Part shown: piece after piece, positions 6,181 to 18,534 of the stretch
Layout: each line of letters starts with the position of its first letter
How positions within the stretch are numbered: the stretch's first letter is position 1
Virus record (IMG/VR): IMGVR_UViG_3300007747_000074
Span: 1 to 21,308 of that record
Reading direction: 5' to 3' (one strand)
Source of the DNA: a virus
Lineage: Duplodnaviria; Heunggongvirae; Uroviricota; Caudoviricetes
DNA length: 21,308 bases
Translations under genes and position numbers: made by a program
Notes under the pieces: generated by a model
Seen by the model: the letters and a program-made list of their open reading frames with translations, nothing else
Database searches by the model: none
What the model was told of the DNA's origin: nothing

Positions 6181-6458
6181 TTCTCAATCTCTCGATGGCG
6201 CAGTGCAGCAGATGCCAGTTGTTCAGGCTGACGAATAAAGTATAAATAAACTGGCTATGGTGTAAAGCTCCACATAACATGAACAAACACTACATATCAA
6301 ATAGCTGATACAAGGATAGAAATACAACACTTATTATTAAAAACGATTAGATAAATTACATTTTAATGTTATGAAAAAGTTCTTTTTTATCATAACATTT
6401 CAACAAAAGCATTACAGATGCACATCCCGTCATCATCAATTATTTAAGGTGGTTAAAC

Positions 6459-12403: not shown

Positions 12404-12826
12404 TCAATGCACTACGACAGAATCGCTAGGAGAACCGCCGCCGCTGAAATGTGCTTTACGGTAAACGGCCTGGACTGCATCATCATGCGCATCAATTGCC
12501 GTACTCAGTGCATCCTGTGCCGCCAGTAATGCACGGCGTTCCAGGGTATCGAAGATGCAGAGTCGGTGACGCAGCTCGCGAGGAAGAATTGCCAGAACCG
12601 CAGGGATCAGTTTCTGAATTTTTTCCCTTTGCGCATTCGTTTCACCTTTCAACCAACGATGATAGATATTCTGCTGATTGTTCCAGTCCTTGCCTGGTAC
12701 CAGGGGCAATTCGCCGCCCCCCTGGCGCAGATATTCTTCAGTAATTGCGTTAGCGACCCACGCCTGCCCTTTTTCGGCTGCCAGGGCTAACAACACTGAT
12801 TCGATGTGCTCATGCTTGATTTTCAT
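12404..12826 (-). CDS. YdaT-like protein (140 aa)
   Basis: ORF overlapping the upstream Cro-like gene stop by 4 nt (ATGA); same size and position as Rac YdaT; function not evident from sequence. Confidence 0.55.
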   Translation of the reverse strand: MKIKHEHIESVLLALAAEKGQAWVANAITEEYLRQGGGELPLVPGKDWNNQQNIYHRWLKGETNAQREKIQKLIPAVLAILPRELRHRLCIFDTLERRALLAAQDALSTAIDAHDDAVQAVYRKAHFSGGGSPSDSVVVH

Positions 12827-13077
12827 GAATCAACTCCCATCAGCTTTTTCGTAGTAGTTTTATTTCTGCCAATAGTTAAAATTGCATCGGCAGAAAATAA
12901 TCCGTTTGATGCATGAGCGATTTTTTCAGCGTAATTTGTTTCGCCGGTATATTCTGTGCGAGGCAATTTTCCGTTATCCATCCATTTGTAGATTGCTCTT
13001 TGGCTGACACCACAAACGTCGGCCACAACAGAAACGCGAACAGTTTTGATTACATCTTCAAGTGTTTTCTGGTTCAT
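12823..13077 (-). CDS. Cro-like HTH regulator (YdaS/DicC position)
   Basis: Start taken at internal Met (MNQKTLEDVIK...) with SD gaggg 5 nt upstream; HTH-like VADVCGVSQRAIYKWM; divergent from the repressor gene; ORF first ATG is at 13149. Confidence 0.55.
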   Translation of the reverse strand: MNQKTLEDVIKTVRVSVVADVCGVSQRAIYKWMDNGKLPRTEYTGETNYAEKIAHASNGLFSADAILTIGRNKTTTKKLMGVDS

Positions 13078-13085
13078 ATCACCCT

Positions 13086-13156
13086 CACAATGTGAACTTT
13101 GAGTACATGCTATAACAGAACTGACAGTACATTCAAGAGCGAATATCATTGAACTT
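13086..13156. promoter_or_regulatory. Divergent immunity-region operator/promoter (OR-like)
   Basis: Near-palindrome cacaatgtg (13086-13094); direct repeats gaactttgagtacat (13094-13108) and gaactgacagtacat (13118-13132); third gaactt at 13151-13156 abutting the repressor ATG. Confidence 0.45.
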
Positions 13157-13576
13157 ATGGTTCATGAAGATAAAGCGCGTAAAGAGTTCGCCAGTAGGCT
13201 TGCGCTAGCCTGTGAAAACGCTGGTTATGAACAACATGGAAGGCAGGCAGAAATTGCCCGTCGAATGAAATTAACACCAAAAGCGGTTAGCAAATGGTTT
13301 AATGGTGAAACAATTCCTCGCCGAGAGAAATTAAGGGAATTAGCAACACTCATTGGAACAACACCAACCTATCTTTTGGGAGAGGATACAGAAGAAAGTG
13401 GACAGATACGTTTCTATCAGGAGTTAAATCCAAGACAAAAAATCATCATTGACCTTCTGGACGAGCTCCCTGACAGTGAGACAGATGAACTTTTAAAAAC
13501 TCTTGAGGAGAAAAAACAGAAGTACAATGCAATTTACGAAGAGTTAGCACGAAAGAAAAAACAAAAAGCCTCTTAA
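13157..13576 (+). CDS. XRE-family HTH repressor, DicA/RacR-like (prophage immunity repressor)
   Basis: 139 aa; N-terminal HTH (RLALACENAGYEQHGRQAEIARRMKLTPKAVSKWFNGETIP) and C-terminal helical region (IIIDLLDELPDSETDELLKTLEEKK...) parallel DicA architecture as I recall it; in-frame stop 57 nt upstream rules out a longer N-terminus. Confidence 0.7.
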   Translation: MVHEDKARKEFASRLALACENAGYEQHGRQAEIARRMKLTPKAVSKWFNGETIPRREKLRELATLIGTTPTYLLGEDTEESGQIRFYQELNPRQKIIIDLLDELPDSETDELLKTLEEKKQKYNAIYEELARKKKQKAS

Positions 13577-13651
13577 ACCAGCATAAATCCGGTAGCGTCC
13601 CCCTCCGGGTTTGTGCTTCACTTTATCCCGTCTCATTTTTTTATACATAAA

Positions 13652-13695
13652 ATGTACTTAAAGTACTTTACAATGATGAACACAAAGTACATTAT
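13652..13695. promoter_or_regulatory. OL-like operator/promoter for the + strand early-left operon
   Basis: 13-bp palindrome gtacttaaagtac (13654-13666); repeat gaacacaaagtacat (13678-13692) matches the OR repeats 12/15; -35-like TTTACA (13667-13672) and -10-like CATTAT (13690-13695) with 17-bp spacer. Confidence 0.4.
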
Positions 13696-13863
13696 ATACC
13701 TACCAACCCACCCCGCCCCACAGAACGCCGGGCAATACTTCGAGTTACCAGGCAGTGGTCAGGGGTTAAGTAGCCAGCCCGAGGCGTATGAACATGACGG
13801 CGGGATTCAAATTTTGCAGTGCAGCAGTTAGTTCCGCCACCCGGCGTTAAGGGGATAGATAAG

Positions 13864-13998
13864 ATGGTGCATTACGAAGTAGTTCAGTATTTGATGGATT
13901 GTTGCGGTATCACTTACAACCAGGCTGTGCAGGCTTTACGCAGCAACGACTGGGATCTCTGGCAGGCAGAAGTCGCTATACGTAGCAACAAGATGTGA
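13864..13998 (+). CDS. ydaG: Small protein, YdaG-like (44 aa)
   Basis: Hand translation MVHYEVVQYLMDCCGITYNQAVQALRSNDWDLWQAEVAIRSNKM; size and position (between repressor and sieB) match Rac ydaG; below the ORF-track length cutoff. Confidence 0.45.
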   Translation: MVHYEVVQYLMDCCGITYNQAVQALRSNDWDLWQAEVAIRSNKM

Positions 13999-14008
13999 GA
14001 TTCGCAAA

Positions 14009-14164
14009 ATGCAAAAAATCGACCTCGGCAACAACGAATCCCTGGTGTGCGGCGTGTTCCCCAACCAGGATGGAACGTTCACTGCCATGACGTATACCAA
14101 AAGCAAAACATTTAAAACCGAAACTGGTGCGCGCCGATGGTTGGAGAAGCACACAGTAAGCTAA
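14009..14164 (+). CDS. ydaF: Small protein, YdaF-like (51 aa)
   Basis: Hand translation MQKIDLGNNESLVCGVFPNQDGTFTAMTYTKSKTFKTETGARRWLEKHTVS; 3' end overlaps the convergent sieB stop by 4 nt; size and position match Rac ydaF. Confidence 0.45.
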   Translation: MQKIDLGNNESLVCGVFPNQDGTFTAMTYTKSKTFKTETGARRWLEKHTVS

Positions 14165-14649
14165 CGATTAAAACGTCTACTCCTGCTGTTCCAGAATAAC
14201 TTCATAAAATGGGAGTATTTTTCGGTGACGAGATAATAAGAACAGTTTGCGCTATCACTCTGATGTTGAATGATGCCCTTCCGTTCTAATTTTTTCATAA
14301 CCGGGTTACGGCAAGGAGAAGTGATAATAAGATTTCCTGTTTTAAGGAAATCTTTAAATACAGCGATTTCTTTCTCAGATAAACGAAGCAATACTCGTTG
14401 CTCTGGTAGTAATGAATAATGCTTTTGAATATGTGCTCGCAATCTTGAGAAGGAAATGGCGACCACGAAAGAAAAGGCAAAAACGATAATCTGAAAGAGC
14501 CAAGGTATTTCAGTATAAGCATTGAATGCGACAGTAAACTCTTTCGGTATCAGCCAGAGAGTGAGACCAAAAATGATAATCGTATACATAAGTCTTTCGA
14601 GTGGCTCGTTAGCAAAAAGTTTCAACAATGGAGTAAATACATCCAACAT
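14161..14649 (-). CDS. sieB: Superinfection exclusion protein B
   Basis: Start taken at internal Met (MLDVFTPLLKLFANEPLE...), giving 162 aa; membrane segments and C-terminus as I recall Rac/lambda SieB; AT-rich; ORF first ATG is at 14772. Confidence 0.8.
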   Translation of the reverse strand: MLDVFTPLLKLFANEPLERLMYTIIIFGLTLWLIPKEFTVAFNAYTEIPWLFQIIVFAFSFVVAISFSRLRAHIQKHYSLLPEQRVLLRLSEKEIAVFKDFLKTGNLIITSPCRNPVMKKLERKGIIQHQSDSANCSYYLVTEKYSHFMKLFWNSRSRRFNR

Positions 14650-15090
14650 ATCAATAACTCTCAACTGTAAGGGTATTGAAATGTTAACACAAGCTCTCGC
14701 TGTAGGGGTATAGCCGAGACCACCGAAGCCCGGAGGTGGTGAAATAAAACCGGGCACAACACGAAGGCGCATTTCCGATATCCATAAAGAGTCGGTCTTG
14801 TCTGTTAAATTTAAATGGTGGGAGTGCGCCTCCGGTTGTAAATAACGACATTGCTGTGTGTAGTCCTGGCGGCATCATTTTTTTTCTTGAAGTTCGGCTG
14901 ATGTCCGCCCTTTTTAAAGTGAATTTTGTGATGCGGTGAATGCGGCTAAGCGCACGTGGCACAGTTAAAAGTCATGTTAGTCCTTATTGGTTTGGGTGGG
15001 AAAGCCGACTGTAATTGTTAACTGGTTGCAGTCACCTGGAGGCACCAGGCACCGCATCAACAAAGTTCATTTGTAAAAATGGAGATAATT

Positions 15091-15312
15091 ATGATTGCAC
15101 ATCACTTCGGAACTGATGAAATACCACGTCAGTGTGTGACTCCTGGCGATTATGTTCTTCATGAAGGCCGGACATATATTGCCTCGGCAAACAATATTAA
15201 AAAGCGAAAACTATATATTCGTAACCTGACCACAAAAACATGCATTACTGACCGCATGATTAAAGTCTTCCTCGGTCGTGATGGTTTACCTGTAAAGGCG
15301 GAGTCATGGTGA
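15091..15312 (+). CDS. kilR: Cell-division (FtsZ) inhibitor KilR
   Basis: 73 aa from [72 protein letters not shown], matching Rac KilR as I recall it; ORF begins 4 codons earlier at 15079. Confidence 0.85.
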
Positions 15313-15482
15313 TGACTAAGAAAATAAAATGTGCTTACCACCTTTGCAAAAAAGACGTTGAAGAAAGCAAAGCTATTGAAAGAATGCTTCACTTCATGCA
15401 CGGGATTTTATCAAAAGACGAACCGAGAAAATATTGCAGTGAAGCTTGTGCCGAAAAAGACCAGATGGCACATGAACTTTAA
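15312..15482 (+). CDS. ydaE: Small Cys-rich protein YdaE-like (56 aa)
   Basis: ATG overlaps the kilR stop (ATGA at 15310-15314); translation [56 protein letters not shown]. Confidence 0.6.
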   Translation: MTKKIKCAYHLCKKDVEESKAIERMLHFMHGILSKDEPRKYCSEACAEKDQMAHEL

Positions 15483-15556
15483 TTAATTGACTATTCGAAA
15501 CTGAATTTATGCCAGAAATGGCAGGTATTCGCTCAACCTTAATTAAGGAGAAAAAC

Positions 15557-15832
15557 ATGATTACCAATTATGAAGCCACTGTTGTAACTACCGATGACAT
15601 TGTTCACGAGGTGAATCTGGAAGGAAAGCGCATTGGCTACGTAATTAAAACAGAAAATAAAGAAACCCCATTCACTGTGGTTGATATCGATGGTCCATCA
15701 GGCAACGTAAAAACACTTGATGAAGGTGTCAAAAAAATGTGCCTGGTGCATATCGGAAAGAATCTGCCCACAGAAAAAAAAGCCGAATTTCTGGCAACTC
15801 TAATTGCAATGAAATTAAAAGGTGAAATCTGA
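15557..15832 (+). CDS. racC: RacC protein
   Basis: 91 aa from internal Met (MITNYEATVVTTDDIVHEVNLEGKRIGYVIKTENKETPFTVVDIDGPSGNVKTLDEG...); matches Rac RacC as I recall it; ORF first ATG is at 15509. Confidence 0.75.
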   Translation: MITNYEATVVTTDDIVHEVNLEGKRIGYVIKTENKETPFTVVDIDGPSGNVKTLDEGVKKMCLVHIGKNLPTEKKAEFLATLIAMKLKGEI

Positions 15833-15839
15833 AAGAAAT

Positions 15840-15860
15840 AGCCTGCGTATGACGCAGGCT
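15840..15860 (+). other. Perfect hairpin between racC and recE
   Basis: agcctgcg (15840-15847) / cgcaggct (15853-15860) with 5-nt loop; no T-run after it, so not a canonical intrinsic terminator. Confidence 0.3.
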
Positions 15861-15933
15861 ATGAACAGTGTGTATCCGGCAAGATCATTCACTGAACAAA
15901 ACGAATTTTAATCTGAGTTGAGGTTAAAAAACA

Positions 15934-18534
15934 ATGAGCACAAAACCACTCTTCCTGTTACGGAAAGCGAAAAAATCATCCGGTGAACCTGACGTCGTCC
16001 TGTGGGCAAGCAACGATTTTGAATCGACCTGTGCCACTCTGGACTACCTGATCGTTAAGTCAGGTAAAAAACTGAGCAGCTATTTTAAAGCTGTTGCCAC
16101 GAATTTTCCTGTCGTTAATGACCTGCCCGCTGAAGGTGAGATCGATTTTACCTGGAGTGAACGCTATCAACTCAGCAAAGACTCCATGACATGGGAACTA
16201 AAACCGGGAGCAGCACCAGACAACGCTCACTATCAAGGCAATACCAACGTCAACGGCGAAGACATGACTGAGATTGAGGAGAATATGCTACTCCCAATTT
16301 CTGGCCAGGAACTGCCCATTCGTTGGCTTGCTCAACACGGCAGCGAAAAACCGGTAACGCACGTTTCACGCGACGGACTCCAGGCATTACACATTGCTCG
16401 GGCTGAAGAACTACCGGCTGTTACTGCCCTGGCTGTTTCCCACAAAACCAGCCTGCTCGACCCGCTGGAAATTCGCGAACTCCACAAACTGGTTCGTGAC
16501 ACTGACAAAGTTTTCCCTAATCCTGGTAATTCAAACCTGGGACTGATAACTGCTTTTTTCGAAGCATACCTGAACGCTGACTACACCGATCGAGGACTGC
16601 TGACAAAAGAGTGGATGAAGGGTAATCGTGTTTCACACATCACTCGCACGGCTTCCGGTGCTAATGCTGGCGGCGGAAACCTCACCGATCGCGGCGAAGG
16701 TTTCGTACACGATCTGACGTCACTGGCGCGCGACGTAGCCACTGGCGTACTGGCCCGTTCAATGGATCTGGACATCTATAACCTTCATCCGGCACACGCT
16801 AAACGCATTGAGGAAATTATCGCTGAAAATAAACCGCCCTTTTCTGTTTTCCGCGACAAATTCATCACCATGCCTGGCGGGCTGGATTATTCCCGCGCCA
16901 TCGTGGTTGCGTCCGTAAAAGAAGCACCAATTGGGATCGAGGTCATCCCCGCGCACGTCACTGAATATCTGAACAAAGTACTGACTGAAACCGATCATGC
17001 CAACCCTGATCCGGAAATCGTGGATATTGCCTGCGGTCGCTCCTCTGCCCCGATGCCGCAGCGAGTAACAGAAGAAGGAAAACAGGATGATGAAGAAAAA
17101 CCGCAACCATCTGGAACAACGGCAGTTGAACAGGGAGAGGCTGAAACAATGGAACCGGACGCAACTGAACATCATCAGGACACGCAGCCGCTGGATGCTC
17201 AGTCACAGGTAAATTCTGTTGATGCGAAATATCAGGAACTGCGGGCAGAACTCCATGAAGCCCGGAAAAACATTCCATCAAAAAATCCTGTCGATGCCGA
17301 TAAATTGCTTGCTGCATCACGTGGTGAATTTGTTGACGGAATTAGCGACCCGAACGATCCGAAATGGGTAAAGGGGATCCAGACTCGCGATTGTGTGTAC
17401 CAGAACCAGCCAGAAACGGAAAAAACCAGCCCGGATATGAATCAACCTGAGCCAGTAGTGCAACAGGAACCGGAAATAGCCTGCAATGCCTGCGGCCAGA
17501 CTGGCGGGGATAACTGCCCTGACTGTGGTGCGGTGATGGGCGACGCAACATACCAGGAAACATTCGATGAAGAGAGTCAGGTTGAAGCTAAGGAAAATGA
17601 TCCGGAGGAAATGGAAGGCGCTGAACATCCGCACAATGAGAATGCTGGCAGCGATCCGCATCGCGATTGCAGTGATGAAACTGGCGAAGTCGCAGATCCC
17701 GTAATCGTAGAAGACATAGAGCCAGGTATTTATTACGGAATTTCGAATGAGAATTACCACGCGGGTCCCGGTGTCAGTAAGTCTCAGCTCGATGACATTG
17801 CTGATACTCCGGCACTGTATTTGTGGCGTAAAAATGCCCCCGTGGACACCACAAAGACAAAAACGCTCGATTTAGGAACCGCTTTCCACTGCCGGGTACT
17901 TGAGCCGGAAGAATTCAGTAACCGCTTTATCGTAGCACCTGAATTTAACCGCCGGACAAACTCCGGAAAAGAAGAAGAGAAAGCGTTTCTGAGGGAATGC
18001 GCAAGCACAGGAAAAACGGTTATCACTGCCGAAGAAGGCCGGAAAATTGAACTCATGTATCAGAGCGTTATGGCTTTGCCGCTGGGGCAATGGCTTGTTG
18101 AAAGCGCCGGACACGCTGAATCATCAATTTACTGGGAAGATCCTGAAACAGCAATTTTGTGTCGGTGCCGTCCGGACAAAATTATCCCTGAATTTCACTG
18201 GATCATGGACGTGAAAACTACGGCGGATATTCAACGATTCAAAACCGCTTATTACGACTACCGCTATCACGTTCAGGATGCATTCTACAGTGACGGTTAT
18301 GAAGCACAGTTTGGAGTGCAGCCAACTTTCGTTTTTCTGGTTGCCAGCACAACTATTGAATGCGGACGTTATCCGGTTGAAATTTTCATGATGGGCGAAG
18401 AAGCAAAACTGGCAGGTCAGCTGGAATATCACCGCAATCTGCGAACCCTGGCTGACTGCCTCAATACCGATGAATGGCCAGCTATTAAGACGTTATCACT
18501 GCCCCGCTGGGCTAAGGAATATGCAAATGACTAA
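15934..18534 (+). CDS. recE: Exodeoxyribonuclease VIII (RecE), full length
   Basis: 866-aa uninterrupted ORF with the large acidic/low-complexity N-terminal region and C-terminal nuclease domain, colinear with K-12 RecE as I recall it; gagg SD about 10 nt upstream. Confidence 0.95.

Follow-up and report, generated by a model that had tools for sequence, protein, structure and literature searches.

What are the short repeats that lie on both sides of the repressor gene in this Rac-like prophage? The window, by which is meant the whole 21,308-nt stretch of DNA analysed here, is a Rac-like E. coli prophage at ttcA with a backbone that carries recET, kilR and sieB. A sequence-only reading had described the repeats as a largely direct family, GAAC-N5-AGTACAT, on either side of a DicA-like repressor gene, in a layout analogous to OR and OL of phage lambda. 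It is proposed here, with a probability of roughly 0.9, that the repeats serve as the operators of an HK022-type immunity (lysis/lysogeny) switch in a Rac-like prophage. The operator interpretation is thus retained, as the sites flank the repressor gene in a lambda-like layout, whereas the direct-repeat interpretation is abandoned. The lambda analogy itself was an understatement, since the sites show homology to the characterised operators of HK022, in position as well as sequence, and are laid out like those of 933W.

Five pseudo-palindromic sites

The three 15-mers first noticed are present at 13094-13108 (GAACTTTGAGTACAT), 13118-13132 (GAACTGACAGTACAT) and 13678-13692 (GAACACAAAGTACAT), as are the inverted AGTACAT at 13652-13658 and the palindrome GTACTTAAAGTAC at 13654-13666. 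Their spacer is one nucleotide shorter than had been written, giving GAAC-N4-AGTACAT, and their pairwise identity, given as 12/15 throughout, ranges from 11 to 12 of 15. Each 15-mer makes up the right-hand portion of an imperfect 17-bp palindrome with two-fold symmetry of the usual lambdoid kind. Five such pseudo-palindromes match ATGWAC-N5-GTWCAT with at most two mismatches (Table 1), and 22 of the 30 half-site position pairs in these five sites are two-fold symmetric. G3, A5 and C6, together with the positions that mirror them, are unvarying in all ten half-sites and define the core G-W-A-C.

The repeats look direct because three of the five sites have the same polarity, with a left-hand GAAC and a right-hand GTACAT, and the copies were detected as a direct-repeat family (D1). 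True direct repeats of GAAC-N4-AGTACAT could be read head-to-tail by a protein with asymmetric sites, as the P2 C and mycobacteriophage repressors do. This explanation is highly improbable, as it fails on the symmetry of the 22 half-site pairs and on OL1, which is a perfect symmetric match, while OR3 (TTGAAC..GTTCAT) and OL2 (ATGTAC..GTACTT) break the common polarity. It also conflicts with the HK022 homologue of OR1, which is symmetric (GTGAAC..GTTCAT), with the repressor being a classical HTH_3 protein, and with experiments on the homologous 933W sites, which showed rotational symmetry and protection of two blocks of about 6 bp (PMC3317979).

Enrichment of the 7-mer AGTACAT, suggested as a check in the earlier reading, is weak evidence by itself: the window holds five copies where 1.75 are expected, and at least five arose in 2 of 100 shuffles. 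Likewise, the 17-mer pattern with at most two mismatches has six matches in the whole window against about three expected, which is not significant alone. The distribution of these matches is more telling: five of the six lie within 600 bp and three within 80 bp, and none of 2000 dinucleotide shuffles contained at least four matches in 700 bp or at least three in 80 bp. A weight matrix made solely from phage HK022 sites, and hence independent of the window, gives no other position in the 21.3 kb a score as high as those of the five sites (13.4-19.5 bits), and in 200 shuffles the fifth-best score never exceeded 11.9. A chance origin of the sites is ruled out by the clustering shuffles together with this independent matrix. 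The sixth 17-mer match, at 6279-6295, is taken as chance because the invariant G is broken there.

Table 1 Features of the immunity region in window coordinates
Feature	Position	Strand	Sequence or description
Cro-like gene	12823..13077	-	84 aa; divergent from repressor gene; RefSeq HTH regulator
Exchangeable immunity cassette	12833-13700		868 bp; cro-like gene, OR, repressor gene, OL
OR1 (named by analogy with HK022)	13092..13108		GTGAACTTTGAGTACAT; adjoins cro-like gene
Predicted PR	13107..13136	-	read from sequence; cro-ydaT-replication genes
OR2	13116..13132		CAGAACTGACAGTACAT; 24 bp from OR1
Predicted PRM	13121..13149	+	CTGACA-17-TATCAT; promoter scan
OR3	13149..13165		TTGAACTTATGGTTCAT; 33 bp from OR2; overlooked by the earlier reading
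Repressor gene	13157..13576	+	139 aa; Pfam HTH_3; flanked by OR and OL
OL2	13652..13668		ATGTACTTAAAGTACTT; holds the palindrome and inverted 7-mer of the earlier reading
Predicted PL	13667..13695	+	TTTACA-17-CATTAT; promoter scan
OL1	13676..13692		ATGAACACAAAGTACAT; 24 bp from OL2; perfect ATGWAC-N5-GTWCAT match

Position of the sites relative to predicted promoters

The predicted promoters overlap the sites as the switch model expects. OR1 covers the predicted start region of PR and abuts its predicted -10; it aligns with GTGAACTTATGGTTCAT of HK022 and scores 16.6 bits on the HK022-only matrix. OR2 occupies the spacer of predicted PR and carries the predicted PRM -35 (CTGACA) in its centre. 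Its GAACTGA-AGT is identical in all five phages of alignment A3, and the site is unvarying across 79 related loci. OR3 is centred on the repressor ATG (13157-13159), with its right half-site formed by codons 2-3; it is almost the same as TTGAACTTATGGTTCAA, which lies over the cI ATG of HK022, has the position of the annotated OR3 in a 933W-like record, and attains the best HK022-only matrix score of 19.5 bits. On the other side of the repressor gene, OL2 aligns with HK022 ATGTACTATTGGTACTT and reaches 2 bp into the predicted PL -35, while OL1 aligns with HK022 ATGAACTTTAAGTACAT, occupies the spacer of predicted PL and overlaps its -10.

The -10 of predicted PRM ends 7 nt before the ATG and no Shine-Dalgarno sequence is present, and the repressor mRNA is therefore predicted to be leaderless. 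The homologous HK022 candidate reads CTGATA-17-TATAGT, and a published construct labels a 'PM-10' just before the HK022 cI ATG. Leaderless repressor mRNAs have been demonstrated for K-12 racR (PMC9638921) and for CP-933P paaR2. Predicted PR combines TTGAAT (13136-13131) with either TATAGC (spacer 16) or TAGCAT (spacer 18). This promoter resembles the consensus poorly and falls under the promoter-scan threshold in the window; its HK022 homologue by position, TTGACT-16-CATAAT, matches at 10 of 12 positions. Predicted PL reads into ydaG/ydaF, kilR, recET, xis and int and has a homologous HK022 candidate, TTTACA-17-CATCAT. Homology to K-12 Rac restarts at 13701, approximately at the predicted PL +1. 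Transcription would be expected to begin at 13156-13157 from PRM, around 13100-13103 on the minus strand from PR, and around 13702 from PL. No structured RNA was found in 13700-13865 (z = -1.6) and no Rfam family near the operators, the only sRNA matches being sub-threshold and further right.

As sites overlap predicted elements at PL, PR and PRM, and as PL and PR of CP-933P share identical -35 and -10 elements, the repeats could also be duplicated promoter cores, with PR or PL copied from the other, rather than protein-binding sites. The probability of this is very small. The placement of the sites differs from promoter to promoter (in the spacer, at +1, upstream of the -35, on the start codon), and OR3 extends into coding sequence. 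Conservation is seen in the symmetric G-W-A-C cores and not in the hexamers. Furthermore, the population shows free variation in the spacers that separate half-sites but not in the half-sites, and in K-12 Rac the motif is swapped wholesale along with the repressor, with no change in the host RNA polymerase.

The repressor and the Cro-like protein

The repressor comprises an HK022 CI-like HTH N-terminal domain and a short helical DicA-like C-terminus. The earlier designation as DicA-like is borne out for the architecture and the C-terminus, with 28% identity to DicA over 112 aa. The N-terminal domain is 46% identical to that of HK022 CI (E 9e-32), and 11 of the 12 residues of the recognition helix match (TPKAVSKWFNGE against TPKAISKWFNGE in HK022). 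The alignment stops where the C-terminal domains of the HK022, Kp4864-1, Omnitron and 933W proteins start. The LexA-like (S24) C-terminal domain, which serves RecA-stimulated autocleavage and dimer-dimer cooperativity, is absent, and Pfam gave no Peptidase_S24 match in the 139-aa protein. In lambda and HK022 the CI-type C-terminal domain mediates cooperativity and looping. Because the repressor is devoid of such a domain, cooperative occupancy of the pairs of sites spaced by 24 bp is not assured.

The Cro-like protein is 62% identical to HK022 Cro (E 1e-34), with a recognition helix that differs in its first three residues (SQR versus TPK). YdaT, the CII analogue, was rejected as the binder of the five sites; its published site, TTGATT-N6-AATCAA, is found elsewhere, at 12816-12833.

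An exchangeable cassette and its conservation

The operators and both regulators form a cassette that is non-homologous to K-12 Rac and related to HK022, as judged by blastn of the window against the two genomes; K-12 Rac is collinear with the window up to 12832 and from 13701. The operators co-vary with the repressor, since the collinear K-12 Rac differs in both, with a repressor of unrelated sequence and another palindrome. The cassette is present at a coverage of at least 80% in 1047 of 5426 complete E. coli genomes, and the same prophage type has been deposited as the 37.8-kb phage genome vB_EcoS-673R7. The OR layout is also retained in Klebsiella phage Kp4864-1 and Citrobacter phage Omnitron. 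A scan of genome contigs recovered one locus only, and a second scan of viral contigs, with the protein alignment, recovered the 99-100% identical loci of the first and nothing further.

Among 49 haplotypes, 7 of 60 half-site columns are polymorphic compared with 40 of 152 other non-coding columns (Fisher p = 0.027), a modestly significant reduction of polymorphism in the half-sites, and OR2 and OR3 are without variation. Polymorphisms pile up at 13108-13111, in the predicted PR -10. The repressor gene has 12 synonymous variants and one nonsynonymous variant in the same haplotypes and is under strong purifying selection.

The prophage could be cryptic and its switch non-functional, in which case the sites would be relics of an HK022-like ancestor. 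Features that would fit such decay are the weak-looking PR with the polymorphisms in its predicted -10, the repressor without a cleavage domain, and the lack of a counterpart to two further HK022 candidate sites. These candidates, assigned from sequence, are a weak one upstream in OL (L003, 2209-2225; candidate OL3) and one in the cro-cII gap (1163-1179; candidate far-right operator, OFR); at the corresponding positions of the window there is no match with at most two mismatches, and the only matches to the operator pattern are chance-level ones with three mismatches at 12804 and 12913. Vestigial sites are nevertheless very unlikely given the purifying selection on the repressor, half-sites that are more conserved than their surroundings, the frequency of the cassette in E. 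coli and the deposition of this prophage type as a phage genome. In addition, the analogous repressor of K-12 Rac is reported to be essential because it silences toxic neighbouring genes (PMC5700373).

Proposed switch and its consequences

Under the HK022-type immunity switch, the five sites would be bound by dimers of the cassette's own HTH repressor and, following the lambdoid paradigm, the same sites may be bound by the Cro-like protein. Repressor bound to OR1 and OR2 in a lysogen would occlude the leftward PR and with it cro, ydaT and the replication genes, whereas repressor on OL1 and OL2 would occlude the rightward PL, which is predicted to serve kilR, recET, xis and int. OR3 lies on the PRM -10/+1 and on the start codon of the probably leaderless repressor mRNA; it could mediate negative autoregulation at high repressor concentration or the shut-off of repressor synthesis by Cro. 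With the predicted PRM -35 inside OR2, repressor bound there might either activate or repress PRM. Binding by repressor and Cro, and the regulation of PR, PRM and PL, are extrapolated from HK022, 933W, K-12 Rac and CP-933P, and the promoter positions, transcription starts, order of site occupancy and any cooperativity or looping are likewise predictions. An OL-OR loop would span the 584 bp that separate the centres of OR1 and OL1.

It is conceivable, though on balance doubtful, that the cassette is a natural chimera in which HK022 specificity (N-terminal domain, Cro and operators) is joined to an uncleavable DicA-type C-terminus. If so, the immunity that it confers would be unresponsive to the SOS system, tight repression of the 24-bp-spaced pairs would need a different oligomerisation module, and, as the PRM -35 is embedded in OR2, the autoregulatory logic would be unlike that of lambda. 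If the short repressor occupies HK022-type operators, about one fifth of complete E. coli genomes (1047/5426) would be immune to phages of HK022 immunity. Confirmation of the switch would make superinfection immunity to HK022-like phages predictable in carrier strains, and would imply that the prophage is not inducible by RecA-mediated repressor cleavage. A KilA-N protein encoded upstream is a candidate antirepressor.

For annotation, a common Rac-like prophage can be assigned to the HK022 type of immunity, and its cassette, cleanly bounded at 12833-13700, can be given five operators and three predicted promoters. The cassette also illustrates modular exchange in lambdoid phages, where the operators, cro and the DNA-binding domain of the repressor travel together while the repressor C-terminal domain and the remaining genome are swapped.

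Comparison with known systems

DicA and DicC of prophage Qin form a divergent repressor/Cro pair, and DicA has the same architecture as the window repressor and a homologous C-terminal segment. DicC is not similar to the Cro-like protein of the window and the dicA-dicC intergenic region contains no ATGWAC-N5-GTWCAT sites, and the sites were therefore not assigned to the DicA/DicC operators.

K-12 Rac and CP-933P share the prophage backbone and gene order of the window. Their short non-S24 repressors, RacR and PaaR2, are divergent from YdaS, the Cro analogue, and from YdaT; both have three intergenic operators, the third over the repressor ATG, a downstream OL/PL set and a leaderless mRNA. Their repressor and Cro proteins are unrelated to those of the window (36% identity over 33 aa only). 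The K-12 Rac operators, TTAGGC-N3-GCCTAA, occupy equivalent places with O3 over the ATG (PMC9638921) and those of CP-933P are 18-bp palindromic repeats with the consensus GTTTAGTAA, both motifs being different from that of the window. Assignment of the window sites to the K-12 RacR operator family was rejected on account of the different motif and the unrelated proteins.

Lambda shares with the window the divergent PR and PRM, a tripartite OR, an OL over PL beyond the repressor gene in the same orientation, and pseudo-symmetric sites of 17 bp, the first and second of which are 24 bp apart. The lambda operators have no sequence relation to those of the window, and OR2 and OR3 are 23 bp apart in lambda as opposed to 33 bp. 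Unlike in lambda, OR3 of the window lies on the start codon, the predicted PRM -35 is within OR2 and not beside it, and there are just two OL sites. As in a lambdoid bipartite switch, two operator clusters flank the repressor gene and overlap divergent early promoters, and cro is divergent.

In 933W, a Stx phage, the OR sites are spaced by 24 and 32 bp (24 and 33 bp in the window), OR3 covers the start codon of cI, and OL has two sites only. A 933W-like GenBank record labels such an arrangement of three plus two sites OR1-3 and OL1-2. For the 933W repressor, whose N-terminal domain is about 50% identical to that of the window, the determinants are G-(A/T)-A-C at positions 2-5; K42 and K46 are modelled as contacting bases, and the K46A mutant loses specific binding (PMC3317979). 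This core and both lysines also occur in the window, whereas the outer half-site bases differ (TCGWAC versus ATGWAC). 933W CI has an S24 domain, unlike the window repressor, and the 933W Cro and flanking genes differ. The 933W repressor, with the same layout of sites, has been reported to be non-cooperative.

The cassette is homologous to the immunity region of HK022. The operator coordinates of this phage are deduced from the HK022 sequence and a second-hand citation, and a literature search found no open paper giving the operator sequences. The sites are 17 bp in a 6-5-6 arrangement with the half-site ATGWAC, and are homologous to the window operators. The OR regions align without gaps at 81% identity and with the same 24/33-bp spacing, with starts at 1430, 1454 and 1487 in HK022 corresponding to 13092, 13116 and 13149, and with OR3 on the repressor ATG in both. 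The OL sites at 2262 and 2286 correspond to 13652 and 13676, 24 bp apart and over PL in both, where TTTACA-17-CAT(T/C)AT is common to the two; the promoter candidates lie at homologous positions. The differences lie in the proteins and the remaining genome: HK022 CI is a 235-aa protein that includes an S24 domain for autocleavage and oligomerisation, as against 139 aa with a DicA-like C-terminus, a YdaT-type protein stands in the place of CII, and the backbone of the window is that of Rac. The five window sites are copies of the well-studied operator set of HK022 and belong to an ordinary lambdoid genetic switch, an OR/OL kind already known, and the cassette opens no new mechanism.

Operator sites flanking the repressor gene

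The sites on either side of the repressor gene form an OR/OL operator pair, with OR lying between the cro-like and repressor genes and OL downstream of the repressor gene (site names by analogy with phage HK022). The sequence-only reading had recognised the pair but described it as GAAC-N5-AGTACAT repeats, largely direct rather than palindromic. Its three 15-mers (GAACTTTGAGTACAT, 13094-13108; GAACTGACAGTACAT, 13118-13132; GAACACAAAGTACAT, 13678-13692) are all present, as are its inverted copy of AGTACAT (13652-13658) and its palindrome GTACTTAAAGTAC (13654-13666); the spacer, however, is four bases long and not five. Extending each copy leftward by two bases places it in a 17-bp unit, ATGWAC-N5-GTWCAT, that is its own reverse complement. 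Allowing up to two mismatches, the window holds six matches to this unit, one isolated (6279) and five clustered, including a previously overlooked site centred on the repressor ATG. G, A and C never vary in the ten clustered half-sites, whose consensus is A/T-G-(A/T)-A-C, and two-fold symmetry holds at 22 of 30 mirror positions. What looked like direct repeats are thus pseudo-palindromic operators of the ordinary kind.

Features of the switch region (operator sites match ATGWAC-N5-GTWCAT with at most two mismatches)
Feature	Position	Strand	Sequence	Basis or remark
84-aa HTH (cro-like) protein gene	12823-13077	-		annotation; divergent from repressor gene
HTH repressor gene	13157-13576	+		annotation
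OR1	13092-13108		GTGAACTTTGAGTACAT	
OR2	13116-13132		CAGAACTGACAGTACAT	
OR3	13149-13165		TTGAACTTATGGTTCAT	centre on repressor ATG (13157)
OL2	13652-13668		ATGTACTTAAAGTACTT	
OL1	13676-13692		ATGAACACAAAGTACAT	
Predicted PRM	13121-13126, 13144-13149		CTGACA, spacer 17, TATCAT	promoter scan
Predicted PL	13667-13672, 13690-13695		TTTACA, spacer 17, CATTAT	promoter scan
Predicted PR	13136-13131 (-35)	-	TTGAAT, then TATAGC (spacer 16) or TAGCAT (spacer 18)	sequence

As a check on the claim, motif enrichment is weak in raw counts but decisive in clustering. The counts, 5 copies of AGTACAT in the window for 1.75 expected and 6 matches to the 17-mer pattern for about 3 expected, are unimpressive, but five matches fall within 700 bp, three of them within 80 bp, and none of 2000 dinucleotide-preserving shuffles had at least four matches in 700 bp or at least three in 80 bp. 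A weight matrix made from the HK022 sites alone, to avoid circularity, places the five sites at ranks 1-5 of 21,292 positions (13.4-19.5 bits), whereas the fifth-best score in 200 shuffles was always at or below 11.9 bits. The sixth-best operator-like sequence of the window (ATGAACAAACACTACAT, 6279-6295) falls within an extended AT-rich gap between genes, upstream of the DUF1367/DUF1364/Q-like genes, and is probably a chance match, since its right half-site carries C in place of the invariant G.

Prophage setting and conservation

E. coli chromosomes match the 1.1 kb surrounding the sites at 100% identity, and at least 80% of this region is present in 1047 of 5426 complete E. coli genomes. The element is annotated as a Rac-like prophage inserted at ttcA with the gene order intR, xisR, ralR, recT, recE, kilR, sieB, ydaF, a small 'phage protein', the HTH repressor, the divergent 84-aa HTH protein, ydaT, a replication initiator and ydaV. 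This arrangement recurs in vB_EcoS-673R7, a phage genome on deposit whose repressor is identical. Because kilR, recET, xis and int, the early-left genes, follow the repressor gene on its own strand, the geometry is that of lambda, as had been proposed: PR and OR separate the repressor gene from cro, and PL and OL lie past the far end of the repressor gene. About 5 kb to the left of the repressor gene lies a gene for a KilA-N domain protein. Upstream of kilR, in a region where K-12 Rac is annotated with the small RNA KilS, there are sub-threshold Rfam matches on the plus strand to DicF (30 bits, 14855-14910) and STnc100 (35.5 bits, 14912-15098).

OR2 and OR3 show no variation across 79 near-identical loci, which represent 49 haplotypes. 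Polymorphism affects 7 of 60 half-site columns, mostly as singletons or at the outermost bases, compared with 9 of 25 central spacer columns and 31 of 127 other intergenic columns (half-sites versus all other non-coding columns, Fisher p = 0.027). The repressor gene is under strong purifying selection, with 12 synonymous variants to 1 nonsynonymous, and is thus functional, not a relic left by truncation. All five related repressors aligned begin with an invariant Met-Val followed by His or Gln (13157-13165 in the window), and the right half-site of OR3, GT(T)CA, overlaps repressor codons 2-3. The repressor N-terminus is dictated by this half-site, the operator constraining the coding sequence.

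Predicted promoters

The predicted PRM -10 ends 7 nt before the repressor ATG and no Shine-Dalgarno sequence precedes this codon, so that a leaderless repressor mRNA is predicted. Its -35 forms the centre of OR2, where the segment GAACTGA-AGT does not vary among the five phages compared; repressor bound at OR2 might therefore either activate or repress PRM. In the predicted PL, OL1 occupies the spacer and covers the -10 while OL2 abuts the -35. The predicted PR, below the promoter-scan threshold in the window, has OR2 in its spacer and OR1 over its start. HK022 has stronger promoter candidates at exactly homologous positions, and a published HK022 cI construct carries a 'PM-10' label directly ahead of the ATG. 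The PR -10 in particular is a poor consensus in the window compared with CATAAT or TAATAT in HK022. A polymorphism hot-spot among the near-identical loci (13108-13111, between OR1 and OR2) falls exactly on this -10 and may reflect a weakened lytic promoter in the resident prophage.

Exchange of the immunity cassette

By blastn the window is 92.5% identical to K-12 Rac over 12406-12832 (ydaT) and 99.75% identical over 13701-17320, with no K-12 Rac match over 12833-13700. This 868-bp gap comprises exactly the cro-like gene, OR, the repressor gene and OL, and its right edge (13700/13701) coincides with about +1 of the predicted PL. RacR and YdaS of K-12 show essentially no relationship to the window's repressor and cro-like proteins. 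The K-12 operator motif also differs: the equivalent positions carry TTAGGC-N3-GCCTAA, in three copies each in the racR-ydaS gap and past the end of racR. This motif is the published RacR operator; the third copy covers the racR ATG, and transcripts from the strongest racR promoter are leaderless (PMC9638921). The immunity cassette is exchangeable, and its operators co-vary with the repressor.

A perfect inverted repeat, TTGATT-N6-AATCAA (TTGATTTTCATGAATCAA, 12816-12833), sits exactly on the left edge of the swapped cassette, spans the cro-like stop and the ydaT start, and is the only such sequence at zero mismatches in the window. The YdaT site footprinted in CP-933P is a match, and a single base separates the repeat from the 'YdaT-box' of K-12, an element that activates the PRE-analogous reverse promoter of racR. 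Past the predicted PL, the GC-rich 160-bp leader (ACCCACCCCGCCCC..., 13701-13863) shares 99.75% identity with K-12 Rac, with no unusual predicted folding (z = -1.6) and no Rfam match.

Relationship to HK022 and 933W

By tblastn against phage records the repressor has matches of three classes: some are identical, those in Klebsiella phage Kp4864-1 and Citrobacter phage Omnitron are 60-70% identical, and HK022 CI and 933W-type CI share about 50% identity with its N-terminal domain. In Kp4864-1 and Omnitron, where CI is full-length, the three OR sites are retained at 24/33-bp spacing. The HK022 sites, assigned from its sequence and a secondary source (PMC8053113), are GTGAACTTATGGTTCAT, CGGAACTGATAGTACAG and TTGAACTTATGGTTCAA between cro and cI, the last over the cI ATG, and ATGTACTATTGGTACTT and ATGAACTTTAAGTACAT downstream of cI. 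The window OR aligns to that of HK022 without gaps (81% identity, spacings of 24 and 33 bp in both); downstream of the repressor gene, the alignment likewise pairs both OL sites and the TTTACA -35. The cro-like protein shares 62% identity with Cro of HK022. Between the repressor and HK022 CI the N-terminal domains are 46% identical, and the recognition helix reads TPKAVSKWFNGE in the repressor and TPKAISKWFNGE in CI.

The C-terminal 50-60 residues of the repressor instead resemble DicA of prophage Qin (28% identity over 112 aa, E 8e-15), and it has no S24 peptidase domain. The repressor is therefore chimeric in architecture, an HK022 CI-like N-terminal domain joined to a DicA-like C-terminus, and the label 'DicA-like' suits this architecture but not its DNA-binding specificity, which is HK022-like. 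As the S24 domain is absent, RecA-stimulated autocleavage is not expected. According to the same source (PMC8053113, citing Carlson & Little 1993), HK022 CI occupies neighbouring operators cooperatively, in OR as in OL, and loops OL to OR; both properties depend on the domain missing here.

In a 933W-like GenBank record OR1, OR2 and OR3 are annotated with spacings of 24 and 32 bp and with OR3 covering the cI ATG, whereas OL has just two sites. Its sites, TCGWAC-N5-GTWCxx, align column for column with those of the window. Binding-site selection, mutagenesis and footprinting showed the 933W site to be rotationally symmetric with determinants G, A/T, A and C at positions 2-5, which recognition-helix residues K42 and K46 contact in the authors' model; the K46A mutant loses specific binding (PMC3317979). 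The window system has the same site core and both lysines.

Overall, the switch is a homologue of the long-characterised HK022 system set in a Rac backbone, with 933W as a further relative, and the putatively non-cleavable DicA-type C-terminus is a modest twist.
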